A DNA stretch of 64,000 nt from Sphyrna mokarran. Taxonomy: Eukaryota. How positions within the stretch are numbered: the stretch's first letter is position 1; the number at the start of each line of letters is the position of its first letter. The translations under genes were made by a program, and so were the position numbers. The notes below the pieces were generated by a model. The model had not been told where the DNA came from and did not search any database. It was given only the letters and a program-made list of their open reading frames with translations. Where the stretch lies: positions 8,804,001 through 8,868,000 of the forward strand of contig JAGIQG010000040.1 of the NCBI GenBank assembly GCA_024679065.1, written 5' to 3'. Shown here piece after piece: positions 3,578-38,064 of the stretch.

Positions 3578-3614
3578 CTTTTTTACTGAAGTTTTTAATG
3601 TAACCGAATGATTT

Positions 3615-5974: not shown

Positions 5975-6189
5975 CTTCAACAAACACATGTTTAGACGTT
6001 ACTTGAAGATTCAATTAACAACAAATCAAATTAGTTATTCTATTTCAGCACCAACACTGCCGATTTGGGAATTATATCTATGGTATCGTTGAACTAGTGG
6101 GGACATGGCGAATGGAATTAAACTGTCAAAAGTGTCACACAATGCATTTGCGGTGGGTAAACAAAGCAAGGAAATATTTAATAAAACAG

Positions 6190-6790
6190 AAGGTTGAGAG
6201 AGATTGAGGAAATGCAAGACCTTGTAGCGCATGTCCACAGTTGCTTGTAGATGGTAGAGCAACTGGACAAGGTGATCAAGAAACATTTCGGAATAATTTC
6301 GCCTATGTGTGAGGTATTGAACACAAAATCAGTGATGCAATGATGGAGCTGTATAGAACACTAGTTAAGCCATGTTTGGAGTTTGCTGCACAATTCTGGC
6401 CACCACAGGAATGACGTAATGACTCCGGAGAGAGATGAGGTTTAAGAAAATGTTGCCATGGGCTGAAAATTGTAGCCATGAGGCGAGATTGGATAGGCAG
6501 AGGTTGTTTTTATTAGAAAAAGAGGAGGCTGAGGCGTGGCATAATTTTGTGAACCATAATTACAAGGGACGTGGGTAGAAGTGATTTATTCGCCAAGTGC
6601 AGGGTTTAATTATTGGGGAGCATGCTCATTTCAAAGATATCTGGATCTGCATCTCAAATGCACCTGCAAGGATATGAAACAAGGATTAGAAAGTGGGCTT
6701 AAGATGCATGGCTAATTAATTTGTTCTCCCTTCTCGCCAGCATAGATATAATGGGCTAAATGGTCTCTATCTGCACCACAACATTTCAAT
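6190..6790 (+). mobile_element. Old degraded CR1 3' fragment in the CH1-CH2 intron
   Basis: Decayed LYRTLVRPxLE..QFW..RF..MLP coding remnants and GGGCTAAATGGTCT tail. Confidence 0.75.
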
Positions 6791-6942
6791 GGTTCTCTAA
6801 TGTTGAGCGACTTTTCAGTCAGTAGACATTTACTTGGATTTTGCACAGTTTTTTTTTCAGAATGCTACGAATCAGTTATAGCTAAGACCATATACAGTCC
6901 CACCACAGCGCCCCTCTCTTACCAAAGTTTCACAACACTTAC

Positions 6943-7242
6943 ATGGCATTTCAACGCTCTTGACTGAGTCACGGTGTCTAACCTCACAGTCAATTTTGGG
7001 GCATTCTCCCTCTGAGTCGCTGATGGTTAACTGGCTACTCAGGGTATAGGTTCCCTTCGTGTTCCTCACTGATGGGTAAGTCTTAAACCCAGTGTTGATC
7101 TGCTGCCCATCTTTCTTCCAGATCAGTTTGGAGACATCTGGAGAGTAATCCATCGCCAAACACCCGTAGGTGACGGAGCCGTCGGAGTTCTGTTGCTGAC
7201 AGGAGGAGACCAGGCCGTAGAGAATGGGCGGAGATGGTGTCA
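6943..7242 (-). CDS. IGHM: IgM CH1 exon
   Basis: Acceptor tttcccAG, donor T|[42 protein letters not shown]...W...[15 protein letters not shown](C) resembles shark Cmu1. Confidence 0.95.
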
Positions 7243-7744
7243 CTGGGAAAGAATAGGCGATTGAACAAGTTAGACTCTTGTTTCTGTTTATTAAGTCATT
7301 AAACATGTTGCCTCAAATATGTTTCTATGTTAGATGTAGCTCTTGATGTTAAAGGGATCAAGGGATATTGGTAGTAGGTGTGATCAAAGTGAATGGAGAA
7401 GCAGTCTCAAAGGGCCAAATGATCTACTCCTACTTTTCTTCGATGCTTCTATCTCAAACATTTTCTAGAATTATAAACTTACCCTATTATTTGCCGATTA
7501 AAACCTACATCCACCTTTGAGATAACGTTACTTCTATCATTTGAGAATTGTCATCTCTGTAGAAACTCAAATCCCTGTCTCCACCTCTATCAGATTAAAA
7601 AAAAATTCTGGTTTCCTCAAAATGACTTATCATTCATTGGATTAACAGAGAAGAGCAAACATTTTCTTCATCGTTGCTACCACTATTTCTTTCTCAAACA
7701 ACAGCACCTTGTGATGAAGAAGTTCTCTCTTCATTCATATCATC

Positions 7745-7862
7745 CACTCAACTGATGAAGGAGTTCCAAAACTCACAACTCCAAATAAACCTGTTGGACA
7801 TTAACCTGGTGTTGTGAGGATATTTACTATGTCCACACCAAACTAACGCCGGCATCTCCACA
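7745..7862 (+). mobile_element. Penelope-like element terminal repeat fragment
   Basis: CTGATGAAGGAG..CCAAATAAACCTGTTGGAC..AACCTGGTGTTGTGAG..ACGCCGGCATCTCCA, the same family as 21057, 24585, 33325 and 43430. Confidence 0.75.
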
Positions 7863-8144
7863 CTAGTTTTGGAAATTGCCTGTGTTCAAACTGATAGATG
7901 CCCCTTTCTCTCTCCAACTCACTGTCTCTCACTCCACAAAATGGAGATTAGTGACTTTGCTTCAAAAATACCTTCGGAATGAATACTTACTGAATGATCA
8001 GAAAACTCTAAATGTGATTACAAATTCAAATAAATACGACATTGACTAATTGAAGGATCATACATTAATAACAAGAGTTGGCCATTCGGGCCCTGAAGTC
8101 TCCTCCATCATTCATTGAGATTACACATGAGCTGATCGTGCTGT

Positions 8145-9250
8145 TCACTCTATTTTGACCTCCTCAGTCAGCCTGTCGATCACCCACTCTCTGCCCATTT
8201 CCCCCGGCTGTTTGCCCTTTCCCCTGGCTTTCTGACTTCCCACCTCTCCATATCTCTGGACAGTGCTCTTTTCCCCTTTCATCCGATTCTCTGTATTTCC
8301 ACCTGGCTCTCTAAAATTCCCTCCAGCTCTATGTCCTCTCCTATCTCCTGCCTCCCTGCCCTTTTTCCTGGCACTCTTACCTTTTCTCACTTTCTCTGTC
8401 CTTTCCCACGGCTCTCTGATCTTTGTCCTGGCTCCTTGCACTTTTTCCTGGCTTTCTGCCCTGTTCTCCGGCAGAGTGTCGTTTCCCCCTACTCGCTGCC
8501 CTTTCCCTCGGCTGTGAACCCTTTCCCCCCTGACTCTCTACCCTCCCCCACCCCTCTGTTCTCCCTTGGCTCTTTGCCATTGTCCCCTCCCCGAGCCCCC
8601 AGCAATTCCTTCCAGCTCTCTGCACTCCCAGAGCAGCTTCCACATTTAAACACCAAACGGCTACTTGAGATCTTTTCTCTCTTTCATTGCAGGCCACCAC
8701 CCCCCCTCCTGCCCCCACACAGATTCAGTGAGTGTGAGTGAGAGAATGTGAGTGCATGGTGGTGAGTGATTGAATGAGTGACAATGAGAAGGAGTGGAGC
8801 GGTGATTCAGTGAAGACAGCTCATAGATAAAAGGGATTTTTACTTAGCCTTTTCTCGGAATTTTATTCTCTGAGCCGGGAGTGTAAAACCGGAAGTAGGC
8901 TCCAGTAAGAACTGGGAATTTTATTTTTTCTTTTAACCTTAGAGCGTTCAATAATCTCATTGTTTCCAGAGGAGCAGTTGGAGTGGGGAGGGGAGGGGGT
9001 GTGGGTGAGTGAGTGAGCGAGAGAGAGAGAGAGTAGATGAATTGTGTGGGTGGATGAGTGAGTAGTGGTGGGTGGGTGGGTGAGTGCGGGTGGGGGAGTA
9101 AGTGAGTGAGTGAGTAGAGGTGGGTGTGGATGTGGGGGTGGGTGAATGAGTGAGAGAGTGAGGGTGGGTGGGTGATTGAGTGAGTGAAATTAAGTGGGTG
9201 TGTGAGTGAGTGGGGGTGGGTGGGTAGTTGCGGAGTGAGTGTCAGTGGAC
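8145..9250. repeat. Strand-asymmetric low-complexity tracts in the J-C intron (C/T-rich 8145-8720, G/T-rich GAGT/GGGT 8980-9245)
   Basis: Base composition read directly. Confidence 0.85.
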
Positions 9251-9834
9251 CACCTCTTCCTCCTCCTCTGCATCGATCTTTTTCCGATTCTCTACTTTGA
9301 TCAGCTTTCAGCAAAAGGGCTGTGTAAAGTCAGGGATCAGTGTAGATCACCGGGCAGCTGTTTTAATGTCGGTGCCTTTCTTTAAGAAACAGTGAACAAA
9401 TAGACAGACTGAGGGAGCTGGAAGGGAAGCTTACAGTAAAACTAGGGTCACACAGGAATCAAACACCAAGTTTACACCAGTATTGGGAGCCAGACGGACT
9501 TAGTCTCAGGCAAGTTCCTTCTTGTTTATTGTGTTTATACGTCCGGTGTAACACATGGAAATCTCCACTTCTGACCTCAAGTTGGATAAAATGACTCATT
9601 GATGAAGCAATAGAAGATTGTTGGTCCCAGAACAATTGGTCCTGCCGAGCTCCTGCAGTGATATCTCAACTTAGATGTTTGACTTCCAACAACCAATACC
9701 ATCTTGCTTTGCGTTAAATATGAATCCAAACACAGAAGAATTTCCCGGTGAAAATTATTCACTTGAGTTTTACTCGAACTCGTCATTCGGACTCTCATTC
9801 AAATTCAAATGGCGGTGATTGGGGGGGAGATCAT

Positions 9835-10145
9835 GGGCACGGTGTCACAGTGATTAGCTCTACTGCCTCACAGTTCAATTCCCATATGGGTTATCATGTG
9901 CGGAGTTAGTAAGTTCACCTCGTATCTCCTTGGTTTCTGTCGGGTGCTCCTCTTACCTCCCACAGTCCAAAGATGTGCGGGTTCGATGGACTGGTCATGC
10001 TACATTGCCCCTTAGTTTGAGGGGCACTAGTTAGAGTCAATACATGTGGTTGTGGGGATAGGGCTTTGTCGGGATCGCTGTTGATGCAGACTCAATGGGC
10101 TAAATGGCCTCCTTCTGCACTATCGGATCCTCTAATTCTATCCTA
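9835..10145 (+). mobile_element. V-SINE (HE1-type)
   Basis: Degenerate tRNA-like head, V-domain GGAGTT..CGGGTGCTCC..CCTCCCACAGTCCAAAGATGTGC, and CR1-like tail GGGCTAAATGGCCTCCTTCTGCACT. Confidence 0.85.
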
Positions 10146-10184
10146 TGATGTTAAGGACAGCCACTCTGACGTACGTGAGATGGA

Positions 10185-11092
10185 AAGTGTGTGAGATCGC
10201 ATTTATGTGTGTTTGTGTGCGCGCGAGAGACAGAGAGGGTGAATGTGTGTGTGGGTGTGCCTGTGTGGGTAGTTTGTGTTTGTACATGTGTGAGACAATG
10301 GGCTGAGTTTGCAAGAGGGGACAGTGTGTCTATTAGAAAGCAAAATAATGTGTTCGTGAGTGAGTGGAAGTGTGCATGGGATTATGTGTGAGTGTAAAAG
10401 ATATGGGCAATGTGTGTAGGTGATAGAAGTAATATGTGTGTGTGCGTGTGTGTCAGAGAGTTTTCGTGGTTGAGTGTGAGAGAGGCGCTGTGAATGAGAC
10501 AGTGTCAGACACATGAGTACTTTTGCAAGTGTGTGAGTCACTGATCTGTGTCTACAAGAGGAGAGAGTGTGCATGAGAGACAGGATATGTGAGATAGAGA
10601 ATGTATGTGTATGTGTGTGAGAAAGAGTGTTTGAAGAGTTATTGTTGATGTGTGCGCGTGTGTGTCTCTTCTTCAAATTGTTTCTGTGCGTGTGTGTGTG
10701 TGGGGGGGGTGGGGGTGGCGGGGAGAGAGTGTGCGAGTGAGAAAAAGTGTGAAAATTAGACAGTGACTGCGTGAGTATGTGTGAATATTAATTGTTGAGA
10801 GAACATGAGTCTGTGATAGGTGGAGTCCTTAAGAGTGTTTACATGTGTATTCGTGTGTAAGAGATGGAGAGACTGTGTGCGTGTAAGAGCAGGGTGTTCG
10901 TGAGAAAGCGTAATTGAGAGCAAGGTCGTGCATGTGTGAGGCAATGTGTGAGCGAGTGAGCGTGTGAAAGAGAGAGAAATATGTGCCTGTATGAGTGAAT
11001 CCGCCTGCAAGTATGAGAGAGAGCATGTGAATGAGCGGGAGACAGGAAGAATACAGATGAGAAATTGTGAGATGGATAGTGCGTGTGTGTGC

Positions 11093-11124
<32 letters not shown>

Positions 11125-11670
11125 AAGTATGTGTGCGCAAGTTTGTGCCTATGTGAGAGACTGTGTATGTAATAGTGTGTTAGAGTGTGTGTATGGATGT
11201 ATGTTTCTGAGAAAGTGTGAGAGAGCTAGTGTATGAGAGCAAGAATGTACACGTGCAAGATAGTGTGTGCAAGAGAGATAGAAGTAAATGCGTGAGAGAG
11301 AGAGGGAGATGCTGTTCAAGAGGAATTGTGAGTGTATATGAATAATTGAGACATCTTGAGTGCGTGTGAGACAGAGCGTGTGCAAAACCGTGAGGCTGTG
11401 CTTATGTGAGTGTATATGTCTGTGTGTAAGAGAGAATATGTGTGGGACTGTGTGCGTACGAGTGCTTTTGTGTATGAGGGTATGAGAGGCTAATTGAGAG
11501 AGCGAGAGTGTGTATGTATTTACATTTGAGGGAGTGTATGTAGACGACGAGAGAAAGAGAATGGTATGAGAGTTATCGTATAAGAGAGAAAGTAAGTGTG
11601 TACATGTGTGAGAGGATATGAGTGTATATATGAGTGTATTTATGTGTGTGAGAGTGTGTGATGTGTGTAA
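10185..11670. repeat. Degenerate (TG)n/(GA)n microsatellite field
   Basis: About 1.5 kb of mixed TG/GA dinucleotides, which explains the spurious H/T/V/C-rich ORFs. Confidence 0.95.
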
Positions 11671-11899
11671 GTCTCTATCTGGCTGATTCAGTCTGGAAAA
11701 GCACACTCACTCCACACATACCCACTCACACAGTAAGTGGGAGTGAGAAGTAGCTAAATATGGACTCCGGGACAAGGGTTGGAAAAAAAAACATTTAAAT
11801 CTTTCACAAGTCAGTCACAACTGAATGATTTCCTCTTTCCTCAATGAGCGAAACCTGTAAAATCTCACGAAATTTGACACAATCCAGGGCAAAACCACC

Positions 11900-12300
11900 C
11901 ACAAGATTATTCGCCCTCTCATTCACCCTCCTCAACAAATCCATCACTAACAAGCAGTGTCAGCAGTGTATATCATATACAACATGCACTGCAACAACTC
12001 ACCAAGGCTCCATAGAATACACTGTCCAAACCCGCTGACTTTACATCCTAACAGGGCAAGGACAGCAGCTACATATAAACATTATCACCTGCAAGCTCCC
12101 CTCCAAATCACACACCATGCTGACTTGAAGCAATATCTCAGTTCATTCATAATCGCTGGGTCAAAATCCTGGAACTTCCTCCTTAATATCAGGGTGGATG
12201 CCTGCAGCATTTGGACTGCAGTCATTCAAGGATGTTTCATATCAACACTTTCTGAAGGAACAATTAGGGAAGATTAAAAGTTCTGGCCAAGCAAATGACT
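11900..12300 (+). mobile_element. Old LINE 3' end (same family at 30430-31110 + and 58050-59580 -)
   Basis: Shared CACCTGCAAG..CCCTCCAA..GCTGGGTCAAAATCCTGGAACT..GGACTGCAG..TTCAAG..GCAATTAGGGA motifs. Confidence 0.65.
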
Positions 12301-12948
12301 CGAAAATGTCTTTAGAAGATTAAAAATAAGCTGCAAATAAATTTGACCCTTTAATTGTCATACTAAACAGATCAGGGACTGCTGTAGTGCGGAACACAAT
12401 ATACTAAGTCTCACTTTACATTTGATCATCGAACATTCTGAAGACCGATTCATCACTGCTTAAAAATCATCCAATTCTCCCCCTACAGGCTGAAGTTTCT
12501 GCTCCCTCTGATGGTCACAATATGCTTTAGGGATTTCATTTCTGAGACGCTGAGTCAAACATCAAATCAAACTATCACATTTTTCACAGATACAAGTTTC
12601 TTAAAGGCATAAATCAAATTTCATTCCCGAAATACAGCAGAAGGAACCAGAAGATTTAAAAACAGTCAGGCAGATTCCTGGCCCCAAAATAGTGGCCACA
12701 CGCATGGAAACAGAACAGGCACAAACGGTGCAAATGCTGATTGCCCCGTAGATCAAAGTATTCAATCTATCAAAATCATTTAAACGTTGGATTCTAATTT
12801 ATCAACAGCCAACTTACAACAACAGAAGATCAATCACCTATTTTAAGTTAACCTGATATGCAATTCAATTTCTGTGTCTGACTTCTCGAAGACAATGTAA
12901 AAATGTAATTTCGCTGAAAATGAGCAAACAAAAATAACAGATTCAGGA

Positions 12949-13179
12949 CAGTTCAATATCCCAAACAGAGATGCAGTGACACAGTAACAGTTCAATGTTC
13001 CGAGCAGAATGCAGTGACACAGTAACAGTTCAATGTCCTGAACAGAGATGCAGTGAAACAGTAACAGTTCAATGTCTCTAACGGAGATGCAGTGACACAG
13101 GAACAGTTCAATGTCTCGAGCAGAATGCAGTGACACAGCAACAGTTCAATGTCTCGAGCAGAAAGCAGTGACACAGTAA
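12949..13179. repeat. Minisatellite, about 40-41 bp unit, about 6 copies, in the J-C intron
   Basis: Consensus CAGAGATGCAGTGACACAGTAACAGTTCAATGTCTCGAG. Confidence 0.95.
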
Positions 13180-16156
13180 GAATTAAACACACCAAGAAAC
13201 CGTTACATAGAAAATCATTAACGGATTCGAGTTAATTTCTTAATTAAGTGTAATCAACAAAATAATCAAGGCAAAATACTTTATCAAGCTGACTATGGCT
13301 GAGTAAATAAATGTACTGTTTCAGAATTAATTTTTAATACAATTAAATACTCTAAAACGGATAATATTTTGCATGTCGGTGTAATATTCAAGGTCTTTAA
13401 TTTTGTATTAATCAGCACCAATATTATATCCAAAATTATTGTTCATTGCTAATTAGCTTTCCCTTGAGCTGAATTTTTTTCTCTGTGTAATAAAATGAGT
13501 TTTCAGTCATCCAAAATATGTTCCTACCTCCAAAATTTTTAAATAATTTGGGAACAATTCAATCTTAGACAATGTTAAATAATAATTACAAATTACTGAA
13601 TGGAAACATTCAGAAATCTGTCATTCATTCACTTAAATCTAATCACATTGTAATATTTCATTTTTACTACAAGTGATTTACCATAACGTACAAAGGTCAT
13701 AAAAATACATACTTCTGAGTTTGTCTAGACTGTAATGGCCTGGCCGTTATTTGAAACCATAATACTGCTTCCCAGATTTAGTAATTTAGAGAATTCATAT
13801 AACTTTTAGACTGAACACATTGTTTAATTAAATAAGATCTGAATTAAACAGTGCCACACAAAGAAGACAATTGATTCAATCCTCTATAGCACTAAAACAT
13901 GATGCAGAAATAAATCCAGACTTTTTCTTCATGGTAATATTTAATAAGAATTTAACATAAGTTTCAGATAGAATCATTTGTTCTATTCTGTCATCTATTC
14001 TTCCCATAATTCTACACTTGTTCAGCAGTAATGGGAGACATAATATTATACTATTACTATAGTATTTATTTTATAATTTTTTATATTAAATAATCTTTTT
14101 TGAATTTCAAACATTAACTTGTAAATCTCCAGCGCGTTTCTGTTGACACTTTACTACAACACAAACACAATTATATGAACAACTACTTGAGTGTCAGCGA
14201 ATTCCATCTGTCAGAAAATTCTGTTCGCTCTGTCGAATTTATTTAAACTGTTTGATTCTAATTGGCCAAAAGTCAAATTGCAACAACAAAATAATCAGTA
14301 AAAATTTTAAATTAACCTGATGATCATTTTAAAATTCCTTTTGCCTTTCAACAATTTTCCCTGTCAGCCTCAAATCCCAAAAGCTAGGCAAAAATGTATT
14401 TTTTTCTGAAAATGAATACATAAAATATAACAGAAACTTGGTAGTGTGATGTCTCTAACAGAGATACAATGACATTGAGAATTGCAATTCGTGATTTATT
14501 TAAAAGTTCAAGTCTGAGTTAACACGAATAAAAGCTGTAGAACAATGTTTGGTGAATATGGAGTTATATTAACGATCAATAATTGTTTGATTTATTTTAT
14601 GATTGAAATTGTTATTGAGAAGTTTGTAAATGCAGAAACGATTTAGTGTCGAAATGAACTTTGTAAGTCATGATTTATTTAAATCTGTAAACATTAGTTA
14701 AAGTTTATAAAATTGTGATATTTTTATTCCATTTTTTCGCAAAACCTGTCTGTTTTCTACGACATGGATTTTCAAACTTATAAATTCTTTGCATGCAACC
14801 AGAAAACGTGTAACCGCTCAATGCCACCGAGTTTAAACAATGCAGCAACAATGTCGAAATATCAAATCACTTCGCAAATTTTAAATTTTCAATGTGGCCG
14901 AACCACAGAACCTCCTGAACAGAAACACACCAAAGCACATCACTGAGAGAATGATTCCGTTTCTTAAGAAACAGGTGAAGTATTCATTCAAAATAATCAA
15001 ATGCAACACAATCTCAATATCGAATACAGCAAAACAGCTCGTCACCAAATGTATGAATTATTAAAAAAAAACAGAATCCGGAATAATAGCAATAGCATAA
15101 TGAAGAGATAGAATATATCGAAGAAATTAATATGGAAACTTTACCGCATTTATTTCACATTGGATCGTATTTAAAACATATTATTTAAACTGTGGATGAT
15201 AAAAGCTGCAACAATCACTGAGATTAAACATTGCAGGTAACCCAAATAGTGAATGCAGTGGCAAACTATATTCTGAACAAACGGCGTAAACTGTGATTTA
15301 GTTCCACCTGCAATTATCGATTATGCTTTTCAAAAATACCAACGGGATTAAGCCTGCCTGATTTCAACCTATTATCATGCGTCAAGCAGTTTCAGACGCG
15401 AAGGCTGTTTGTATTCAATCACAAAGGGTACAACGGCACAGTGTCACAGAGTTTTAATATTGCAGAATCGCAAAACCATTTCAAACATTTTACTTATTCA
15501 AAGTCTCTCAGATCCACAATCTTCTCAACAGAGAGAAAAAAATGCATTACTAAACCCCGCTTCATGCAGGAGCAGCTCAATTCTACAAACATTTCCAACA
15601 GAATCAAATGTAATATTGACAGAAAATCTCAAACTTAATTCCAGCCAATCCAACTCATCACAAACTAATCAATAATTAAAATGAACAGAAATATGTCAGA
15701 ACCACGTCAGCATTGCGAGTAAGCGGAATATGATCACACAATTAATACAGAATATTTAGCACATTTTGTCAATATTGGGTTATGTTGTAAATGTGTGTGC
15801 AATAGCTGGTACAAACCGCAGCCAGATGTCACCGCGTTTATACGTTGCAGTAACGTCGAACTGTTTAACAAAAGTTAGACAGTAACTTTGAAACTAAATC
15901 AGCCACACAATACCTTCAGCAATAAACACCAAAATACAACAACCAAGGATTGAGTTCCTTAACATCACCTTTTGCCCTTTAGTGGCAGAATTGTATAACC
16001 CCCATATTAAGCAGAATCACATGAAACATGGTTAAGATTTTTAGCACAACATTCACCAAATCTCATTTCAGTGAACGAATGAATTAATAAAATCGACAAA
16101 AAACATAAAACAAAAGCTCAAATAAAATCGTCACTAAATAATTGCGTGGTGCTTAC

Positions 16157-16234
16157 CTGCAGTCACCGTCACCATGGTCCCTTGTCCCCACTTGTCACAG
16201 TGTCACATTCGCTTGGCTGGGTCAGACAATAATT
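16157..16234 (-). other. JH segment (coding 16157-16195, xKWGQGTMVTVTA) with 23-RSS (16196-16234)
   Basis: WGQG motif, phase-1 donor G|GTAAGC, and RSS CACAGTG-23-ACAATAATT read on the plus strand. Confidence 0.95.
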
Positions 16235-16560
16235 GGCCCTGCAAAACATAGACAGAAAAACTACCATTATTTTAAATATTCACAAACCAGAGGAAAAGCA
16301 AAGTCAATTACCATTCATGAAATTATTATTGTAGTTGTGGATACGGTTCGGTCTACATAAATAACATTAATATTCTATATTTCACAGAGTATCACATGAA
16401 CGTGTTTTTGGAAACAGCAAATCATAATTCAATAGTTTTCATAACTTTTCCCATTTGATTCTCGTTATTGTGCAGTGCTGGACACAAATAATACAGCATT
16501 GTAAATAATGTTGGATTATAAAACAGAGCACGGACCCATACTCGGTCAATTAGCGCTGAG

Positions 16561-16629
16561 GGTTTTTGTATTGAGAGTAACTGTTGTGCTACCCTTGTTA
16601 TCACAGTGAGATACAGCATGACAGATACT
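16561..16629 (-). other. DH2 segment (coding 16589-16601, ATAACAAGGGTAG) with 12/12 RSS
   Basis: Plus strand GGTTTTTGT-12-TGTTGTG-[13 nt]-CACAGTG-12-ACAGATACT. The J-side heptamer reads CACAACA (non-consensus, CAC retained). Confidence 0.9.
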
Positions 16630-16943
16630 GTGCCTGATTGCTATCTGTAAAATACAGAGATTTAATTTCACTGCTCTCTCAGAAATTTCCTGCCTCTTCT
16701 AAGAGTGAATGAGTGAGATATTGTAACTTGTCCTAGTCATTATATTTACAAAGTGCGTCGGAATACTGTTAAACCCTCTATTTAGATTTGGCATCTCGTT
16801 CAACCCAGATTTTACAGTATTTAAGATTTCTATACTTTTTCACAAACAGGCAATACTTCTACACATTATTTCATTGAAGCCTTGTTTACTTTGAAAATCC
16901 TGCTGTAGCACTGATCACCAATTTGAACAATCTCCTTCTCTGA

Positions 16944-17022
16944 GGTTTTTGTATGAGGCTGTCTCTGTACTCAGCACTGTGATCCCCATAGTATCACAGT
17001 GACACACAGCCGCACAAAAACT
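16944..17022 (-). other. DH1 segment (coding 16982-16994, ATACTATGGGGAT) with 12-RSS on V side and 22-RSS on J side
   Basis: Plus strand GGTTTTTGT-22-CACTGTG-[13 nt]-CACAGTG-12-ACAAAAACT. The 12/22 layout is typical of shark D1. All three frames are open (ILWG, YYGD, TMG). Confidence 0.96.
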
Positions 17023-17413: not shown

Positions 17414-17718
17414 CCCTGCTGCACAGTAATAGATGGCGGTATCTTCAATCCTCAGACCGGTTATGTCCAAAGCGAAGATATTATTTGAAAGGTCTTTGGA
17501 TGGAGTAAATCGGCCCTGAATCCCTGGGGCGTAATTATTGCTCGATGAACTTTGGTACTCCAGGAGCCATTCGAGCCCCTGTCCTGGAACCTGTCGGATC
17601 CATTGCATCCAGTAGCTGCCAAGATTAAAGCCGCTGGTTCTACAGGTCAGTTTCAGGGATCGTCCGGGACGCACGGTCTCTGCCGCTGGCTGGGTCAACA
17701 CAACCTCCGACTGGACAC
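17414..17718 (-). CDS. Shark IgM VH gene segment, germline/unrearranged, open frame
   Basis: Acceptor tttacAG. Translation [102 protein letters not shown] has the canonical Cys, Trp and YYC, and ends at an RSS. Confidence 0.98.
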
Positions 17719-17848
17719 CTGTAAATATAGATCAAAAACCCAGAGGGTTATTCGCGATGCATTGATTTCTGACTCTGAAACATTCCAGAGATAAACTAAC
17801 GTTGAGACAGTAACAGTGAGAGACTTCGTCAATAAATAAACTGCTCAC

Positions 17849-17894
17849 CAAATAAGAAGCTCAGCAACAAACTGAGAGAAATCGCCAACCTCAT
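17849..17894 (-). CDS. IgM heavy chain leader exon (MRLAISLSLLLSFLF + G)
   Basis: ATG at 17894, hydrophobic signal peptide, 46 nt, phase-1 donor G|GTGAGC. It splices in frame to the VH exon ([11 protein letters not shown]). Confidence 0.95.
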
Positions 17895-17983: not shown

Positions 17984-18066
17984 TATTTAAATACCCAGCA
18001 GAAGGAGGCGGCTTTCCAGGCGCCGCCTGTTGATTCCATGCTGGAGGCGGCGCCTGGATCCACGTC
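17984..18066 (-). promoter_or_regulatory. VH proximal promoter: TATA-like box and GC-rich inverted repeat, no proximal octamer seen
   Basis: TATTTAAATA at 17984-17993, about 90 nt 5' of the ATG. Perfect 14-bp inverted repeat at 18015-18028/18045-18058. Confidence 0.7.
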
Positions 18067-18289: not shown

Positions 18290-20520
18290 AAAAGACCGTC
18301 AGTCAGTTTTGCAACAATTGCTGGTCTCTGTCACATTACAATAATAAAGCAACATTTAACAAATGAATTGTTATCGATTTCAGTAACTAAATGCAGGGGA
18401 TGAACAAAGTGATTCGAGTTGCAGTGTGGATGGCTATCACTGTACAATTTGAATTTGGAGATGAGAAGAAACTCTCACACAATACAGTGTTTCTCCTTAT
18501 ATTTGTCAAACTGTCCCAATCTCGAAGTCAGTTCTTTGAAAATAACAGGACTCCCGGCCTCCTGATAATTAAATAGTGAGTTGACAGAGAAACATGGAAT
18601 TAAATCGGCATTTGACAGAGATGTTAATGAATCGGAACGGGCACGGACATCACTAAAGTTCTCTTTCAGCATCTAAATCATTGCAGCTCTCTCTATTGCC
18701 ATCGGCTGTCTAACATTCGTTAGTATTGTGAACACAGGATATTAGGTCTTTGCAGCGCATTGCACTGTATCACAAGACAATGTTTTATTTTCCATTGAAT
18801 CAGGTTATGAGCTGATCATTTTTCCACTCATTGGCAACCATGAGAAGAACTCTTCGATAACAGAAATCCGATCATACTGTACAATAGATACATTTTTGCA
18901 TTGTTCTGATCTCAATTGGCAGAATTTGGAGGATCAACATCTCTCGCATTTCATGAAGTCGTTAATAAACAGAATTTTATTATTGGAGGGGCAATTACTT
19001 GAAAGTTATACAAATGTAAAAAAAAATCCGGTCACTTTGTTGTTTTGCGATATTATTTATTCACATAATGAACAGGACATTGAATGAAAATATTTGATGA
19101 GAATGATTACGATTTAAAATGTGTCTTTCTTCTGGGAACGAAACATTAATTGTTCAAATAGCTGAATCCCATTTTGTCTGTTCAGGTTCGCGCTAATCTG
19201 TCCCACACAGTATTTGGCAGCAATCCAGGCTGCTGTCAAATACTCAAAGTTATTGACAGGAAGCATCTGGGGGTGTTTATGCAGTAGATCAAAGATCTGC
19301 TTCCTCATTACTGACCGCTTGGCTGCAAGCCAACTTAAAACCTTTCACGTTATCAATGAGGTCTATTTATAAACAAATCTACCTAGGAACAATACTGGAG
19401 GCACTTTAATTTTTAAAAGTTGTAAATGTAGATGATTTTTCCCATCTCTATCGAAAGGAAAGTAATGCAGCTCTGGCACCCTGTCAGCAACAAGAATGAT
19501 TTTCCCAACACATGAGGATATTGTGATGGATGGATAGAAATAATTAAAGGCAAACTAAGAGATGTATGAGAGAGACAATACATGAACATATATGTTTGTA
19601 TTTTCTTTCCATTTACCTTTTCATGGGATGTTTGGTTGGAAAGACCAGCACTTTTTGCCTGTCCCAAATTCCCTTGAATTGACTGGTTTTCTAGGCCACT
19701 ACTGAAGATATTAAAGAGTCAGCTATTTCGCTGTCTGCCTGGCATTTTTGTGTAGCGATGACAGATTTCCTCCATTGGGAAATCAGAGAGGTTCCAATAG
19801 TCGCCATTAGTATCCATTTCTGATTTATTAATTGAATTGAAATTCCACCAGCTGCAATGCTCCGATTTAAATCCCTGTTCTTACACCATCGCCCTGGGCC
19901 TCTGGGTCATTGAATTAATTAAATTAATATGAAGTCACAATCTACGCAAATAATAAATGTATTACTGTGTTGATGCAGGAATGAATTATATTGGAATGAA
20001 TGACGTTTGGATGAATGACAATTTAATGCCTGAATATTTTGATTGAGGAATCAATGAATGGATTCTTAGCAGCAGTAATAAATGGCATTGAAAAATGCTC
20101 TTCTATATTCCCATATTTGTGCTTGATTATTACATAAATTGAATCAGCTCTTTATTCCATTGCTGTCAGCTTCAATTCTTCCAGACTGTCTGGGTGAAAT
20201 CCATCCTGAGTTTATCAGGAATTAGCAAGCTGATGCTTACGGAGAGAAGAACGAAACATTCCCATGGCTCGGATGGTTCATTTCTCTGCTGATTCTGAAC
20301 TTTCATATCCAAGATAAAAAGAGTGAAGATAACTGGTTTGAGGAAGGAGGATTGTAATATTTGAAATATGTGTTTTTTCACATACAGCAAATCACTCAAT
20401 ATGCCCTCACTCAAATTAGTGGAAGTAACAGGATGAAAAACAAACAAGGTAGCAACAGAAATATTGTGAGACTCACTGGACAATTACAAGTGTTACATTA
20501 CTTCCCAAAACATCTAATAG
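18290..20520. repeat. VH 5' flank, copy 1 of a diverged segmental duplication
   Basis: Colinear with 26020-28800, e.g. GGCTGCAAGCCA..CTATTTATAAACAAATCT..TACTGGAGGCA at about 19320-19403 and 27669-27750. Confidence 0.85.
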
Positions 20521-21056
20521 TATCTGTGGAGCCAGAATACAGCCAACGTCTGGAGTCTGGGTGACGCTTCGGCAGAGTATTCCTGATGCGGTGTAGAGCA
20601 CGTCATTGTTTCTGACAAGGTGTCAGAGAAGATGCATAACTTTTCTGTGAGATAGGAATAGTTTACGTAGTTACTGGTTGATGATGATATACACCATTTC
20701 GAACCACATACAAGTTACATCAATTCACATACCAATCCCAAATATCATAATCAACTTTTCCATCCTAACTAACCTAATCAACGTTTCAATCACTATTAAT
20801 ATCTGAAAAAAAACTTCCAAATCCCTATTCACCCTCATCATTTCCAAATTTAAACCTCCTCTTCAAATTTCTCCAAATATACAACCAAAGATCTTCCTGA
20901 CTCAAAACTTTGGCTCTATTCTCTCTACACAGATGTAAGACATGTTGAGATTTTCCAGAATTTCGGACTCCTCAGGTGTTGACACAGTCTGCGTCCATTT
21001 GAAGCAAGACTGAGAAAACATTCAGTCTTGGGCTAATGAGTGCCAAGTAACATTAA

Positions 21057-21435: not shown

Positions 21436-22989
21436 GTTTATATTACTCCCTAGACATTCTCTATGGATACGTAATATTCGATACTGACCCTGTATATACT
21501 TCAGTAGAATGTGTCAGTGTTATTCCTGCACTTAAATGAGGCTCTATTTGAATTATGTCTCTGTTATGACAAAGTTCTGCGAGAAGAAGAGGTAATATGT
21601 TGGGATAAACATATTGCTATCGGGCAAGATCCAGAGTCGGGCAGCACTGTTTCGACCGTATTTGGTTGGTGCAATCATGGAGGGCTGACGGGCCTTTTCC
21701 TGTGCTGTAATTGTCTTTGATTTTTATTTCTTTTTGACAGTGCATTCTACACAGGGATTGGTATCCATTTTCAGTGCAGTCAGCAGAAGTAAATTTCAGA
21801 TATTCCTTCTTCTTTTCCAGCGCCCAAAATCTCACAGAGTTTGCACATGCAGAAGGAAGCAGAGAATTGTGTAATTCCAGCCAGTTTTATCACTACTGGC
21901 CTTGACCAATGCAATGAAAACTGAGGCCGAGTCCAGTACAATATAAATGTGGACATGGTCAAATGAAGAAGTCAAACTGCATCTAGTTTGATACAAACAG
22001 AGAAAGATCTAAATTAATATAAACAGAGGCAACGTCTCGCTTTACATAAACAGAAACACGGTAACGTACAACATTAAGAAGGACAGCCTATAACTTAGTA
22101 TAAACAGATAAAAAATTCAGTTTAATATGAGTAGAGACAGGCAATATGAAATTCTACGTGCAATATAAAAAGAGTTAGAGTCTAGTGAAAAATAAAGAAA
22201 GACATGGCCTCATAATATAAGGTGACACAGGGTAAATTTCCTGTAATGTAAAGAGAATTTCAATTCTCATGAAATTTGCAGAGAAGGCCTACTGTCCTAT
22301 CAAAAACTTCCAGGACAGGAGTAACATGGTGTTAGCTGCAGAATGCAAAGTTCTCTCTGCATTGCCAAATTAAACACATTTAAGCCTGAAATAGCATGAA
22401 TTAGATTCAAAATGAATCTCCCTCTCATTCCAAGAACAGTATACTGTCTAGAAACAGAGTGAAATTCCCTCTACAACGTCTGCTCAAACAAAATGAAGGC
22501 AGAAAGAGAATAGATTCTCTTCTACGTAAAACCTCTCCTGCACTCTTCCTTTCGATATTCGGGAGGCAGATGCTAGGTACAGGGGAAAGATTGTCTACAC
22601 AGTTCCATAAAACACACCCAGGTCAGGTACAGCAGAGATTAGATACGGATTAAATTTTGATATCGATAAAGTCATGTCAAACTTTAGGCGGGTACAGTGA
22701 GTTTAAATGCAGAGTAAATATTCCTCGACACTGTCCAGTCAAATACTCCAAGGATAGGGGCAACACCTGCTAAATGTAAGGAAAAATCCTTGGTGCTGCC
22801 AGATCGAATCCTTATCACGAGCTACAGCCGAGGTTAGATGCAGAAGAAAATGTAGCAAGAACTTCAATTCATAGAATGTTCCAGAGACTTTTTTTAGAGT
22901 AAATCTCATTACCCATCCCAATTTATTGCATTACATTTTTTAAGAAGCTATAACTCTGGCTGAGAGAATACATTGGACTGACATTGACT

Positions 22990-23700
22990 TTATGCTGTGG
23001 AATGAAGACCATAAGCCGTCGTGGAGAGACAAGACACAGAACCAGACAGGAGAAAGATAGAGAAAGATGAAACACAGGAAATTCCCACATACACATTTGC
23101 CGTGTCATTATATTTCGGGGTCAGAGGGATTATTTCCTAATTTTGAACATAGATATCATATAATGTTTTTCCTCACATAACAGATGAATAAATAATGTTG
23201 AAAAATAATCATTACTGGAATCTGTTGATTGATTTGCATGGTTGTCTCTATTTCTGTGCTGCATTGGTGGGGAAATATTTGTTGTGTTTTTGTCAGTCAA
23301 CAATCTAATCTAGAATTTCTATTTTTGTATTTATTTACATAAATATCTCACTGATTACAATGAAATGTTCATGACAGCAAAACCAGTTAAACCGCCACTT
23401 TTTGATCAGTTTCAACTTAAAATATGGTTTATTTTAAGAATATTAACAGTTGGTTCAAAATGAATGGAAACTTTTTCAACATTCATTACACCAGTTGCAT
23501 TTAAAAAGATGATACATTCCATTTCAAAATTAGTTCTGAAAGTTCTGATGTCACAATTAATAAAGTCACCTTGAACAGGCAGATATTCCACTGAATGTTA
23601 ATTTGATTGAGAATTTAATCTGTTTAAACCGGACAAGTTAATTTTTTAAAAAAATCTGATGACTGAAGTACTCCTATCACACACTCACACGACAGAAGAA
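22990..23700. promoter_or_regulatory. Conserved non-coding module with octamer ATTTGCAT (23232-23239), copy 1
   Basis: Colinear reverse-complement match to 63240-64000, with the highest identity around the octamer. Confidence 0.6.
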
Positions 23701-24254
23701 TAAAAAATCCAATATGGTTATCACTAAGATAATTGACCATAACTTTGCGATTTTGTTACAAAAATGAGGATTTGTGTAGAACATCGAGCACAACAGCCTT
23801 GCTCTTTGTATTTATATCAAGAGATTTTGCATCCTGGCATCGACGTTAAATGTGAATCTGGTTCTCTCTTTGGTGATGCCCATTGAGCTGCCGAGTAGTG
23901 TTTTTTATTGTTTTTTTTGATTTTTGGAATCTACAGCACTTTGCTCTGTTTTCATTGATCTTCTGGATGTGAGCATCACAGACAAAGCCAACATTATTTA
24001 TCCCTGCTGAAAAGGCGATTGTGAACTACCCTGGTGAAACTTGCCCTCCAGATGATTTTATTGTTTGACTCTCCATAAAAACTGGATGGCTTGCTCGGCA
24101 ATTTCAGTGATGGTGAATTTCATCACAGTGGAGCTGGAGTCTATGTGGGCCAGACAGGGTGAAAATGGGAATCTTCGGTTCTCGTGCGATTTCTAAATAA
24201 CAGTGTTGTTTGAAGTATAAAAGTAAATTACTGTGTATTCTGGAATTGAAAGCA

Positions 24255-24447
24255 AAAGAAAAAAGAAATACTGGAAAATCTCAGCAGGCCTGGTAATGTC
24301 TGTAAGGAGAAAAAAGAGCTGCCGTTTCGAGTCCAGATGGACTTTTGATAAACCTTTAATGAAGGGTCTTTGGACTCGAAAATTCAGCTCTTCTCTCTCC
24401 TTACAGATACTGCCAGACTTGCTGAGATTTTCCAGCATTTTCTCTTT
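24255..24447. mobile_element. Fold-back (palindromic) Penelope-type remnant, second family
   Basis: Arms of about 80 bp, CTGGAAAATCTCAGCA..TTTCGAGTCCA / TGGACTCGAAA..TGCTGAGATTTTCCAG. Single-arm relics occur at about 20890, 23860 and 25775. Confidence 0.75.
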
Positions 24448-24584
24448 ACGATGTTTTACGTGTCTTTGGGCGGAGTGAATTGATTCTGAATCTCTGGGAC
24501 GAAAAAATTTTTAGGTTGATCCAAGACTGTTGTACTGAAGAAGATATTATAAACAATGTCCAGGGAGCTGTGGGACCCAGGCTA

Positions 24585-25209
24585 TGATGTAGAGGTGCCG
24601 GCGTTGGACTGGGGTAAACACAGTAAGAAGTCTGACAACACCAGGTTTAAATCCAACCGATTTATTTGATAGTAAATTTGCAAGCTTTCGACTCTATGGT
24701 CTTCATCAAGTGAATGAGGTGTTCTGGTCTGTGCTGTTATAGAACATAGAACATAGAACATTACAGCACAGAACAGGCCCTTCGGCCTTCGATGTTGTGC
24801 CGACCAATATAAAAAGCAATGCCCCTCCAAACTAAACCATTCCCTTCTCTTCCATATACTTATCAACTAACCTCTTAAACGCCACCAAACTTGGCGCATC
24901 TACAACTGCTGCAGGCAGGGCATTCCACTCCCGCACCACCCTTTGGGTAAAGAACCTGCCTCTGATATCCGTCCTATAACTATCACCCCTTAATTTAAAG
25001 CTGTGTCCCCTCGTGCTAGCTTTTTCCATCCTAGGAAAAAGGCTATCACTGTCCACCTTATCTAAACCTCTAATCATCTTATATGTTTCGATCAGGTCCC
25101 CTCTTAGCCTCCTCCTTTCTAACGAAGTGTGCTTTTGGAAGTGTTATGTGTGCTTTTGGAGACCAGAACACCTCATTCACCTGATGAAGACCATAGAGTC
25201 GAAAGCTTG
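24585..25209. mobile_element. Penelope-like element with inverted terminal repeats and a nested CR1 3' end (24739-25123, minus strand)
   Basis: 24681-24730 is the reverse complement of 25160-25209. The element is flanked by duplicated ACCCAG (24575-24580, 25211-25216). Confidence 0.85.
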
Positions 25210-25384
25210 AACCCAGATTATCCAGCTGCTGCCAATATTCAACGTGTTGGCTTTACAGTTTAGTCTCAGGGGCTCTCAGGGACGCCGGGTTTCTGCCTCT
25301 GGCTGAGTTAACATAACCTCTGATTCGATACTTATAAAAATATATATTTTTTTAATCTGGAATAATTCTCTATTGCGAACGTGG

Positions 25385-25640
25385 CAGGAAATTATGAAGA
25401 CACGTACAAACCGACTAAAAACAGCTTCTTTCCTGCTGCAATCAAACTTTTGAAGGGCCTACCTCGCGTTAAGTTCATGTTTCTCTACATCCTGATTGCA
25501 ACACTACATTCTGCAATTTGTCATTTCCTTCTCTATGTACGGTATGCTTTCTTTGTATATTGTGTAAGAAACATTAACTTTCATTGTGTACTAATATGCA
25601 TGGCAGTAATAAATCGACTGAAACCAAATCAAATCAAATC
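25385..25640 (+). mobile_element. Rex1/Babar-type LINE 3' end in the pseudo-VH leader intron
   Basis: KNSFFPAAIKLL C-terminal motif, AATAAA and (AAATC)n tail. Confidence 0.65.
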
Positions 25641-26019
25641 TTATCAAATAAATGAAAAAAACGAGGATTATTCCCGATGAATTGATTGCTGACACTGTAA
25701 CATTCCGGGGCTAGACTAATGCTGAGGCAGTAATAGTGAGATCCATTGTCATGTCTCTGCTAATTCAAGAGGTGGATTCGACATGTCAACTCTTTTCTCT
25801 CTTTACATATATTACGAAACCTGCTGAGGTTTTCCAGAATTTTATCTTTTGGTTTCAATTGCAGAACCATGTCTACTCTGTCTGCCTAACATAGACTCCA
25901 GTTCCAATCTGTTATAGAGGAAAAGAAAACAAAAGAAAAAATATTGTAAATTTATTTCATTTATTTGCCTCTCCAGAAGGGAATAGATATAAACAAGATG
26001 ACATTATCTTTTCAGGGGA

Positions 26020-28800
26020 AAGATGTCAATCTGATTTGCAGTAATTCTGTGTCTCTAACATATTGCAGCAAATATATAATTCATTAGAGGAATTATTATT
26101 CATTTATTGTATTTCGGGTGAGGATGACTATTACTATAACTGGGATTGGATATAAAGAAATGGGAAGCAATGGCTTAATACTTTTTTATCACTAGACAAT
26201 TAATTCACAAACTCAAATAATGTTCTCAGGATCCGACTTTAAATCCCATGCAGCAGACAGTGGAATTAAAATCCAGTAGAAGCATCTGGAATTAAGGATG
26301 TACTTATGACAATGATATCGTTGCCGATTGAGTAAAAACTTTTCTGGTTCACGGATCTCTTTTAGGGAAGGGGAACTGTGGTCCTTGCTTGGTCTGGCAT
26401 ACATGTGATCCCAGAGCCATAGCGATGCGGTTCTCTTTCAACTGCCTCGGACAAGGAGTGGACAATTAGTGATGGTCATCCAGCCGCACCCATCTCCATA
26501 GAATCTTTACAGAACAGAAGAAGGATTTTTGGCCCATGTGGCCAACCACTATTCCCACCTACGCCTTATACCCATCACCCCACACATGTTCCTTGACACC
26601 ATGGGAAAATTTATCGTCGCCCATCAGCCTATCCTTGGCCCATATGAGTAAATGGATAGACAACTGGAGTATGTATAGACTGCATAGAGACAATGACTCC
26701 ACACAGACCCAAACCGGAAATTGAAGCCGGCTCCCTGGCGCAGTGAGACAGAAGTGCAAACAACTATACAACCGTGACACCCACGAATCAATTCAGAAAA
26801 AGAAAATCCTCATGTATTCCAATGTTACACCTTATATTTCTCAAACTGCTCCCTAAGCCTGTGAAAATTGAAGGCGAAAGAAACCTGGTTGGCTTATAAT
26901 TAATTGAGTTGACAGAAAAACATAAAATTGAAATCGACTTTTGACAGAGAACTCAATGGATCAGAATGGGCACATCAGGATTTTCTGGCGTATTGCACAA
27001 TATCAGGAGAATAAATCTTCCACGGAACCAGGTTGTGAAAGATTCATTTCTTCATAGATTGGCAGCTCCGAGAGGTACTATTAAATAATCGAAATCATAT
27101 TATGCTGCACAACAGAACATGGTGCTAATCAGATGTAAGAACCTTTTTAATGAGGGGCAGAACAGTGAGAATATTCCAGGAATCGGCATTGTTCAAGGCA
27201 GATATACGACTTGCTTTTGCTTTTAATTATTTTCAAATGTGGGCCATTGCACTGACCTCACTGGACTGAGGGTTTGGGGACATCAACATCTCTTTTATGC
27301 ATTGCATGAAGTTGCTCACCAAGTGGCTTTAATTGTTGGAAAGACATTTACCTGGAAGTTATACAAGTGAAACAGCACAATATCAATTTACTAGTTGTCG
27401 ATACTATTTATTCATACAATCAATAGCGCAGTCTTTTAAAATATTGCTTGGAATAAATACCATGTAAAACATGACTTTATTGTGGGAATTAAACATTTAT
27501 TGTGTTACTGTTAAGTCCCATTTTATCTTTACATGTTCACGTTAAGCTGTCCCAGGCAGTATTTGGCACCAGTCCAACCTGCTGCCAAATACCGAAAATA
27601 TTTACAGGAATCATCTGAAGGTGTTTATTCAGAAACTCAAAGATCTGTTTCCTCAGTACTGAACAGTTGGCTGCAAGCCAGCTTCAAACTCATAGCATTA
27701 TCAATGGGCCTATTTATAAACAAATCTGCCTAGCAACAGTACTGGAGGCAATTTTAAATTTGTAAACTGGTATGAATATTTCCCATTTGTTAGGAAAAGA
27801 AAGTCATTCAGTTCTCTGGAACTTTGCTGGCAACAACACACTCTATCCAACTCAACAAAACACTGTGATTGAAGGATATAAATAAATACAGGCAGACTGT
27901 GACAGTTAAACCAGAGATGCGGTATTTTTACACTACATATATATGCTTATCTTTTATTTCACTTCTTCCATGGGACATGGGAGTCTCTGAAAAAATCAAC
28001 ATTTGTTTACTGTGCCTCATTTCTTTTCAACTGAGTGGTGTACTAAAGTATTCCAGAAGGCATTGCCTAGTTACCCATGTTACTGTCCGTCTGCAGTCAC
28101 ATCATGGTGAGAACAAATAGGGATGGCAGATTCTTTAACTGCGGAATCAGAGAGGTTTATCAGGTCTCTGTCAGAATGATTTATTGATTGAATTCAAATT
28201 CCATCAGCTGCCATGGTCGGATTCAATCTGGTGTTCCCACATCATTGGCCTGGGTTTCTGGATTACTGGCATTTGCGTAGGCACCATCTTCACAATTTTT
28301 TTAAACTGCTTGGGTTGAGACAGAGATGAAAGATAGTTGGGTGCCTAAATGCTTTGATTGAGGAATTAGTGAATGGATTTACTGATCTGACGATAGCTGG
28401 TCCTGAAGTTTACTGTTCTACATTCGCATACGTTTGTTTTACCACATCAAAAATCGAACAGATCCCTTATTACAATTGTGTCAGCCTATAACCTTTAGTC
28501 CTTCCAGATTTTCTCGGTAAATTCTATTCCCGGCATGCCGGGAACAAATGAATTGAAGCTTTTTCCTCCATGTTGATAGCAGATCGTGAAACCCAAGATG
28601 GAATGCGGAAACATGAGCAGATTGCTGAGCGCGGATTGTTATAGTTGTAACATGTGGCCTTTCTAGTGCAACAAATCATTCAACAGATCATCACCCAAAT
28701 TAATGAAGATAACAGGCTAAAAAATAAATCATGTGGCAACTAAAATATTGTGAAATTCATTGGAAAGTCTCACGTTTTAAATGAGTTTCCAGAACTGTTT
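26020..28800. repeat. Pseudo-VH 5' flank, copy 2 of the duplication (with extra SINE insertions about 26170-26800)
   Basis: Direct-orientation homology to 18290-20520. Confidence 0.85.
26500..26780 (-). mobile_element. V-SINE (HE1-type)
   Basis: Reverse-complement tRNA head and decayed V-domain. Confidence 0.65.
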
Positions 28801-33010: not shown

Positions 33011-33324
33011 GGGTCAGGTCTTAACGCTGCATAAATCCATGTATGTGTCTCGTTAATCCTGACTCTGCCTAAATTTCATGCGACCAGGTGAAAACTTTTA
33101 TCGATGTTCATAATCATGAAGTTGTGATTGGGTTAATTAAAGAGAGAATCTTTCAACTTTGAGGACGGTCAGCACCCAATGGGCACAAAATTACTTTATT
33201 GAGCAGGAAGACAGAAAGATAGTTGCTTGCTTTTACAGAAGCGTTGTTATGAGCTTGAAAAGGTGATCAAATTAGATTTCACAGAAATTTTGGAAAATCA
33301 ATTAAATATATCCTTCATAATGAG

Positions 33325-36646: not shown

Positions 36647-37548
36647 TCAAGGCGTATTGAGTTGAAGAATTCCAATAAAGGGGTATTTCAGTAGATCTTT
36701 TAGCTGTTGTCTGAAGTGAGTCTGTGTCACAGCATAAATGGCAGTATTTGTGCAGCAGCTTGTGAGTTGAAACATGAAGCCCAATTCCATAACAAAAAGA
36801 TGTAACCTTACTGACTGATAGCCCAAGTTATACATCCGAATCCATATTAAATAAACCATTAATGTCGACCATAAGAGGATGAAATTGGCTGAGATAACAA
36901 ATAACAAAATGATGGATTTCCTTCGACTCTCCATCTCTGGGTCTCTAGAATTCTCCCCACTGTTCTGAGCCCGGAGTCTCCTGCGGGCTCTGCTGCTCAC
37001 TAAAATGTGTCGGACGGTGAGAACATTCAGCAGCAGAATCAGGATGAATGGGATACACGGAGTTAGAATGTTGTGGAGGAACTCGATTGTTCCCCAGACC
37101 GCATATTCTGCAGCTTCCAATGTGAAACCACAAAACCAGGGGTTGTTCGCCAGTTGATATCTGTTTAATAACATAAAATACCAGGAAACGTTTTTTAAAA
37201 AGCTCAGCACTGTCACTGTTCCCCAAATCACTGCCGCCAATTTCTTACTGCAATATTTACATTTCAGCTTGGGGCAGCAAATGGCCACAAATCGATCAAA
37301 GGTGAAAGTGACGGTGAACCAGACAGAACAGTCAGTGGCTGCATAAACCAGGACGGCTTGGATGTTACACACGGGGACTGACAGCAGGAAATAAAACTTT
37401 CTCCAATAAACGGTGGGAATATGTCTCAATATCAGGTCGAGGATAACAACCAACAGATCCCCTGCTGACATGGCCACCAGGTAATGAGTGACACATTTGG
37501 ACAGACCACAGTTTCTGCTCATCAATGTCAGAATTGTGATTATGTTCA
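36647..37548 (-). CDS. Exon 2 of class A orphan GPCR, GPR139/GPR142-like shark-expanded family (end of TM1 to C-terminus, open frame)
   Basis: Acceptor cttcctgacAG, then (V)NIITILTL..CGLSKCVTHYLVAMSAGDLLV, FTFDRFVAIC, DPEMESRRKSIILL and TM7 SCCTNTAIY. Confidence 0.92.
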
Positions 37549-38064
37549 CTGTCAGGAAGGAAATAAAGAATAAAATCAGACCTGATTCAGGGAAGGAAGT
37601 TACTATTTAGACTGCAGATGGAACAATTAAAAAATGTGCACACACACTGAATCACTTAAATCTTTTTTTTATGATCCAGTATGTCTTTTGGAGTATGAGA
37701 AGAAAGTGGAACATTTGGAGGAAACTCACGCATACATGGGGGGAAGGTCCAAACTCGATACAGATGATGACTTGAACCTGGAATTGAACCCAGGTTCCTG
37801 CTGCTGTCAATCAGCAATTCTAACTATTGTACCACCAAGTTGCTCCATGCGAGGGACAAAATGGTATACATTTTGGAAAGAGTTTTCCGGGGGTCCTCAA
37901 AATTGACCCTCACTGAGCTGCAGGTAAATAGTCTCTCTACTTGTGGGCGATTTGGGGAGTGAGAAGGTTGTGGGGGTAATCCTGACAGAAAATTCAGAGT
38001 GGAGTCCTGTAGGTGGCAATCTGTTACCCTTCAAACAGCTTCAGCAGAGCTGGTAACAAACAAT

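Follow-up and report, generated by a model that had tools for sequence, protein, structure and literature searches.

A duplicated, octamer-bearing block 5.3 kb upstream of VH in a shark IgM cluster: a tentative candidate for a distal lymphoid enhancer

The window analysed here (the whole stretch of 64,000 nucleotides) is cartilaginous-fish DNA whose minus strand carries an IgH minilocus in unrearranged form (Table 1). Identity of the last C exon was 78% with a Chiloscyllium protein and 60% with IgH of elephant shark, the V segment matched solved heavy-chain V domains, and the order of segments agrees with the layout of one V, two D and one J with Cmu given for IgM in the available text of PMC2435157. 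Degenerate recombination signals were seen between 16145 and 16650 on the minus strand (the D2 3′ heptamer, CACAACA, the D2 5′ nonamer and the J nonamer), and only 5 bases separate the heptamer of J from its Trp codon. With such D2 and J signals the cluster may recombine poorly and its activity is doubtful, which counts against an enhancer acting on it.

Multi-copy repeats, mostly pieces of CR1-type LINEs, account for approximately 32% of the window. An assembly gap of 190 N (2241–2430) lies downstream of the last C exon, and the transmembrane exons were not located. The J-C intron harbours a 38-bp tandem array of 6 copies (12948–13179) and two old internal duplications (14750–15241 with 15369–15854, and 12761–12981 with 14224–14474), while a direct duplication of ~ 510 bp with 89% identity (55315–55828 and 57244–57756) flanks a LINE insertion. 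A GPCR-like gene, also on the minus strand, has a 319-residue open second exon (36647–37606) and, ~ 7 kb upstream, a probable first exon at ~ 44650–44720 with an in-frame stop; it is possibly a pseudogene, and may resemble the expanded shark GPR139-like family.

Table 1 Features of the minilocus and of the duplicated block (positions within the window; strand blank where none is given)
Feature	Position	Strand	Details
Remaining unrearranged IgM-type cluster	3615–16995	-	D1 (~ 16988), D2 (~ 16600), J (~ 16190), four C exons and secretory tail
Intact VH gene	17414–17894	-	Leader, intron, V exon, 23-spacer RSS; start codon 17894, V exon end 17414
Degenerate internally repeated DNA, adjoining copy 1 on the V side	22280–22920	+	Weak self-matches; 5 loose matches to a satellite-like motif
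Copy 1 of AT-rich duplicated block (~ 730 bases, non-coding)	22997–23725		77% identity to copy 2; GC 32%
Overlapping ETS-like and kB-like sites	23074–23086	+	Strict kB consensus in copy 1 only; copy 2 has GGAAATTTCC, 63912–63900
E-box CATTTG	23094–23099	+	In both copies; not the muE5 form CAGGTG
Best-conserved core (~ 200 bp)	23215–23413		Copy 2: 63768–63567
Consensus octamer	23232–23239	-	ATGCAAAT on the IgM cluster strand; copy 2: 63744–63751, + strand
GGGGAA, muB/PU.1/Ikaros-like core	23269–23274	+	In both copies
Variant octamer ATGTAAAT	23333–23340	-	Copy 2: 63640–63647; 9 such 8-mers in window
TGATGTCA, CRE/ATF-like	23546–23553	+	In both copies; 2 of 3 occurrences in window
V pseudogene remnant, split by repeats	24462–25751	-	Exon pieces 25345–25220 and 24579–24462; intron piece 25751–25648
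Pseudogene 5′ flank	26800–28795	-	63% identity to VH flank 18466–20511; homology ends at LINE (28831)
SINE-like piece and old LINE remnant, adjoining copy 2 on the distal side	62796–63226		
Copy 2 of the block, inverted	63238–63993		Reaches 7 bases from window end

Upstream of VH lies an AT-rich block for which a sequence-only reading had proposed an inverted second copy at the far end of the window. This was borne out by alignment: 22997–23725 matched 63993–63238 at 77.5% identity (E about 1e-161), with 587 of 759 columns identical and a K2P divergence of 0.22. The accompanying description of the block as AT-rich and non-coding also held, the copies sharing no conserved reading frame and having no protein relatives. 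A profile built from both copies detected no third copy in the window. An older third copy at 54–55 kb was considered and rejected, as the block itself scored within shuffles there and one adjoining stretch was borderline (171 versus a maximum of 145 in shuffles). Prokaryotic collections (plasmids and GTDB genomes) yielded no further copies, which is unsurprising for shark DNA. In the part of the window around copy 2, no Ig segment was found. The evidence on the block thus consists of two copies only, and neither a functional role nor a link to antibody genes is demonstrable from n = 2.

Between VH and the pseudogene flank we recognised a V pseudogene which the earlier reading had missed, in the same orientation as VH and interrupted by SINE-like and LINE pieces. 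It ends ~ 0.7 kb from the block, which therefore sits between a pseudo-V and an intact VH and has two possible anchors. A 188-bp imperfect palindrome resembling a MITE (24260–24447) was noted where the pseudo-V ends, and it recurs in part at 25773–25866 and 20887–20964. Beyond the pseudogene flank (30–33 kb) there was no homolog of the block; an octamer at 30315 was considered as the pseudogene counterpart and rejected, since its surroundings do not align with the block. The block is hence present in one of the two V-type 5′ flanks of the window, but a LINE cuts the flank of the pseudogene short of where a copy would be expected, which weakens this count as a test of per-cluster occurrence.

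The block had previously been described as better conserved than the duplicated V flank. Numerically this is correct (K2P 0.22 versus 0.37), although the flank of the pseudogene belongs to a different, older pair. With a flank divergence of 0.37 and pseudogene exon pieces diverged by 0.33 and 0.36 from VH, the pseudogene pair is older or decayed, and the comparison gives no sign of constraint on the block. The best-conserved part of the V and pseudo-V flank pair was located at 19208–19411 and 27557–27753 (K2P 0.20 versus 0.37, p = 0.0003–0.0008). This segment, 1.3–1.5 kb upstream of the VH start codon, carries in-register ETS, E-box, forkhead and GAGGAA sites without an octamer, and may be regarded as the better-anchored regulatory candidate because it is V-linked in both copies.

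Kokubu and colleagues reportedly described in 1988 a TCR-like decamer in shark VH promoters; the full decamer, in the form used for the search, had no match in the window. Directly 5′ of the TATA box of VH, where the DNA is otherwise AT-rich, lies a short GC-rich inverted repeat (18010–18060, minus strand). Three further statements of the sequence-only reading proved accurate, namely a perfect octamer in both copies of the block (ATTTGCAT, at 23232 in copy 1 and mirrored at 63744 in copy 2, in register), a distance of 5.3 kb to VH (5,338 bp from octamer to start codon) and the lack of a proximal VH octamer. The 500 bp upstream of VH contain no consensus and only a version with one mismatch, AAGCAAAT, at 18120, which matches the missing upstream octamer of shark IgH genes in the available text of PMC2435157.

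The argument from octamer retention to function, on the other hand, did not survive scrutiny, as an 8-mer survives such divergence 12–20% of the time. Intact 8-column windows make up 20% of all those in the block alignment, and of 150 neutral simulations, 18 ended with the octamer intact in both copies. The window as a whole shows no excess of octamers (3 observed, 3.5–5.0 expected), and the one in the block sits at the edge of the core, where identity within 25 columns (0.84/0.84) is close to the average of 0.80. The long exact blocks put forward alongside it fared no better: the longest run covered 28 columns, where 23.9 is the mean under the null (p = 0.21), and runs of at least 15 numbered eight (p = 0.052). 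No conserved leader adjoins the block octamer in either direction, the nearest real leader being 5.3 kb off, and a leader exon starting from an ATG that overlaps the octamer was rejected on account of implausible geometry and marginal similarity.

Conservation is unevenly distributed along the block. In the core, 177 of 199 ungapped columns are identical, compared with 177/218 and 233/309 in the flanking parts (K2P 0.12 versus 0.22 overall). The best 200-column window had a permutation p of 0.003–0.007 (about 0.004), and none of 150 neutral simulations reached p of 0.005 or less for this excess, which weakened to p = 0.08–0.13 after removal of the distal third. Among six other pairs tested, the V flank and one of three LINE control pairs (p = 0.0007) were equally heterogeneous, and heterogeneity of conservation is therefore not specific to function.

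Motif content was assessed with panels based on general definitions of the kB/ETS-like, GGGGAA and other sites, that of the variant octamer being taken from catfish. With a relaxed lymphoid panel, drawn up post hoc after inspection of the alignment, 6 of 15 motif classes were kept in register, while 1000 letter-permuted decoy panels gave a mean of 0.48 and a maximum of 3. Copy 2 retained six of the seven motif instances of copy 1 (two of these six overlap), whereas retention among decoys was 0.29 (p = 0.003). AT-rich tiles of 730 bp with at least six classes numbered 3 of 25, all overlapping the block (7 of 172 among all tiles). A strict-consensus panel left the octamer alone as conserved (1/13, p = 0.33), and a non-lymphoid control panel gave 2/20 (p = 0.85). 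The muE5 form CAGGTG was absent from both copies, their only E-boxes being CATTTG and CAGTTG/CAGATG. The regulatory reading of the block is consequently left with the better-conserved 200-bp core and the in-register motifs, neither of which had been cited for it, rather than with the exact blocks, octamer retention and V-flank comparison which had.

Mammalian IgH enhancers contain kB and PU.1 sites, and the block likewise combines an octamer with ETS/PU.1-like and kB-like sites. The mammalian 3′ enhancer is stated to depend on OCA-B and OCT2 (PMC13043367, in part). In contrast to the block, the mammalian Emu and 3′ enhancers (excerpts of PMC1800861 and PMC13043367) are single elements of a translocon locus, placed within the J-C intron or downstream of the C genes, and the block resembles neither region of the window cluster. 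No similarity was found to the J-C intron (12000–16150) or the 3′ region (2430–3600), and homology to a J-C intron, V-J, 3′ or proximal-promoter element was rejected, scores being at shuffle level.

A closer likeness is that to the Emu3′ enhancer of channel catfish, which in the excerpts of PMC1800861 is likewise octamer-based, belongs to a fish IgH locus and uses ATGTAAAT as a functional variant octamer of its core. That core, however, has two variant octamers and muE5 and lies just 3′ of Cmu, whereas the block, known from sequence alone, has one consensus and one variant octamer without muE5 and is situated 5′ of V. None of the Ig enhancers placed in the same excerpts lies 5′ of V; their positions are 5′ of C genes or 3′ of Cmu. 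The block also shares a consensus octamer with the octamer-TATA type of Ig V promoter, including shark light-chain NS4 in the available part of PMC2193156, and copy 1 has the heavy-chain orientation relative to VH. In such promoters the octamer is found within a few hundred bases or less, while the block is 5.3 kb from the start codon and is not followed by a leader exon. Given the missing muE5 site and its position, we do not class the block as a member of the octamer-type Ig enhancers, and its enhancer activity is a prediction.

The duplication, the positions of the copies, the in-register motifs and the modest core excess are direct observations. Taken together, they suggest a reading of the block as low-copy duplicated locus DNA with no recognisable transposon, which might act as a distal enhancer for the octamer-less VH promoter 5.1–5.3 kb away, the intact VH being its presumed target. 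We assign this reading, the likeliest single one, a probability of about one in three, and the block would accordingly be described as a plausible yet unproven lymphoid-type cis-element and a tentative IgH enhancer.

Among the alternatives, a neutral relic left by duplication of a segment or of a cluster flank, with repeat-eroded surroundings and with motifs that are post hoc chance matches in AT-rich DNA, fares best, though we consider it rather unlikely. Neutral divergence would account for the exact runs and for octamer survival, the lack of octamer enrichment and the null result of the strict panel point the same way, and repeats adjoin both distal ends of the block. A second inverted two-copy block (33089–33318 and 52631–52391, 75% identical) has a near-equal divergence (0.24) and lies on nearly the same anti-diagonal. 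The two inverted blocks nevertheless share no homology, and the second is weakly LINE-like, resembling an old LINE piece (E = 0.1); a single large inverted duplication joining them was set aside as unproven, with no homology in between. The core excess and the retention of relaxed motifs also argue against neutrality.

An old dispersed element of ~ 740 bp, such as a non-autonomous transposon, a solo LTR or a retroposed 3′ fragment, with an origin unrelated to Ig loci, appears unlikely. The opposite orientation of two copies separated by 40 kb would be in keeping with it, as would an AATAAA and an A-rich run near one end. Copy 2 stops 7 bases short of the window end, which makes its V-side limit provisional, and similarity seems to drop at 22997/63993, where 3 of the last 7 window bases match (p = 0.03 at 80% identity). 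A 6-bp direct repeat surrounds copy 1 (22983–22988 and 23732–23737); it is within chance expectation, however (p = 0.21–0.6), and TG...CA ends with a target duplication were seen in 0 of 3726 end pairs (full test on copy 1 only). The earlier statement that no transposon is recognisable stands within the window: terminal inverted repeats and LTR ends are lacking, and the block does not match the LINE profile of the window, in whose 64 kb only two copies occur.

A protein search against 1.84 billion representatives returned two matches. One of them, P0009, is a 43-residue open reading frame with 70% identity over 30 residues and was the sole match among four candidates in a second search; it points to a further homolog of the block outside the window, which also suits a dispersed element. 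This single close homolog counts against such an element, with the qualification that protein searches are insensitive to non-coding DNA. The other match, P0008 (1402 aa, 29% identity, 19 stretches; phmmer), was taken as a probable low-complexity match and set aside.

Less likely still is a remnant of the promoter, or of the last exon and 3′UTR, of some other multi-copy gene, the body of which would be lost at copy 1 and lie off the window at copy 2; an orphan V gene of TCR or light-chain type located among IgH clusters would be an example. On the minus strand the octamer, a TATA-like AT run and the kB site follow each other in promoter-like order. In copy 2, one frame would encode a hydrophilic stretch and then a hydrophobic segment, with AT-rich DNA and two shared AATAAA coming after it; its Arg/Asp pattern looks TCR-like. 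Copy 1, copy 2 and P0009 are nonetheless in differing frames, and the length of 10 of the 12 indels is not divisible by three. Shark light-chain genes have an octamer upstream of the leader in the available text of PMC2193156, and TCR-type V exons occur between IgH clusters in that of PMC12227049. Similarity to the VH leader was unconvincing, though (one of four comparisons at p = 0.013, over 31 AT-rich bases).

Nor did any Pfam family match in 24 frames, save one below-threshold phage match elsewhere; no longer protein was found as a relative, and no atlas match exceeded 0.75. A terminal transmembrane exon, suggested by the stalk and transmembrane-like frame of copy 2, was discarded since the frames disagree among the three homologs and there are no protein relatives. 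There was no convincing similarity to GPCR coding sequence, and a piece of the GPCR gene was also rejected: protein similarity was absent, and the sole DNA match above shuffles was a GA-rich tract downstream of that gene. An RNA family or fold was rejected as well, with no Rfam entry at gathering score in the window (one chance match, E = 0.68) and an uninformative two-sequence fold.

The enhancer, neutral, dispersed-element and exon readings are not fully exclusive, and a repeat-derived element could have been co-opted. If the block is a distal enhancer, Oct1/Oct2 would bind both octamers, 100 bp apart, and OCA-B, which is present in sharks according to the accessible part of PMC13043367, would be recruited to the consensus site. 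Further activation may come from NF-kB/ETS and ATF-type factors, and the assembled complex would contact the TATA promoter of VH by looping. The block may have spread via duplications of cluster flanks, and copy 2 might serve a head-to-head cluster just outside the window. If copy 2 mirrors copy 1, a plus-strand VH is expected ~ 5 kb past the window end, with a start codon near 69,000. The two VH genes would then be ~ 51 kb apart, which counts against this arrangement, being below the 120 kb or more given for nurse shark, possibly another species than the present one, in the available text of PMC2435157.

The block bears on how octamer-less shark IgH miniloci are activated, mostly one at a time. 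A limiting promoter-enhancer complex is proposed in PMC2435157, whose available text does not name a shark enhancer and takes the missing octamer to mean that heavy-chain factors differ from light-chain ones. No described shark IgH enhancer was found in the literature searched, a scope that leaves most subscription immunology journals outside. PMC3308330 and PMC8692893 contributed nothing about enhancers, and neither PMC5192425 nor the available text of PMC2192082 mentions octamers or enhancers. A wider proposal is that every shark IgM minilocus has its own distal Oct/OCA-B and NF-kB enhancer ~ 5 kb upstream of V, acting as a limiting switch which activates few clusters per B cell; we regard this generalisation as improbable at present.

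Should the block be neutral or a repeat, it would be ordinary. Were it real, it would constitute a novel V-upstream, per-cluster variant of the octamer-type Ig enhancer, and a candidate of 200–730 bp with mutable Oct and kB sites would make the limiting-complex model testable. If the proposal is true, the octamer input missing from the VH promoter would be supplied by a distal element; this V-upstream architecture would set shark clusters apart from bony vertebrates, with their intronic or 3′ enhancers, and the inference of different trans-factors for shark heavy and light chains would be undercut.
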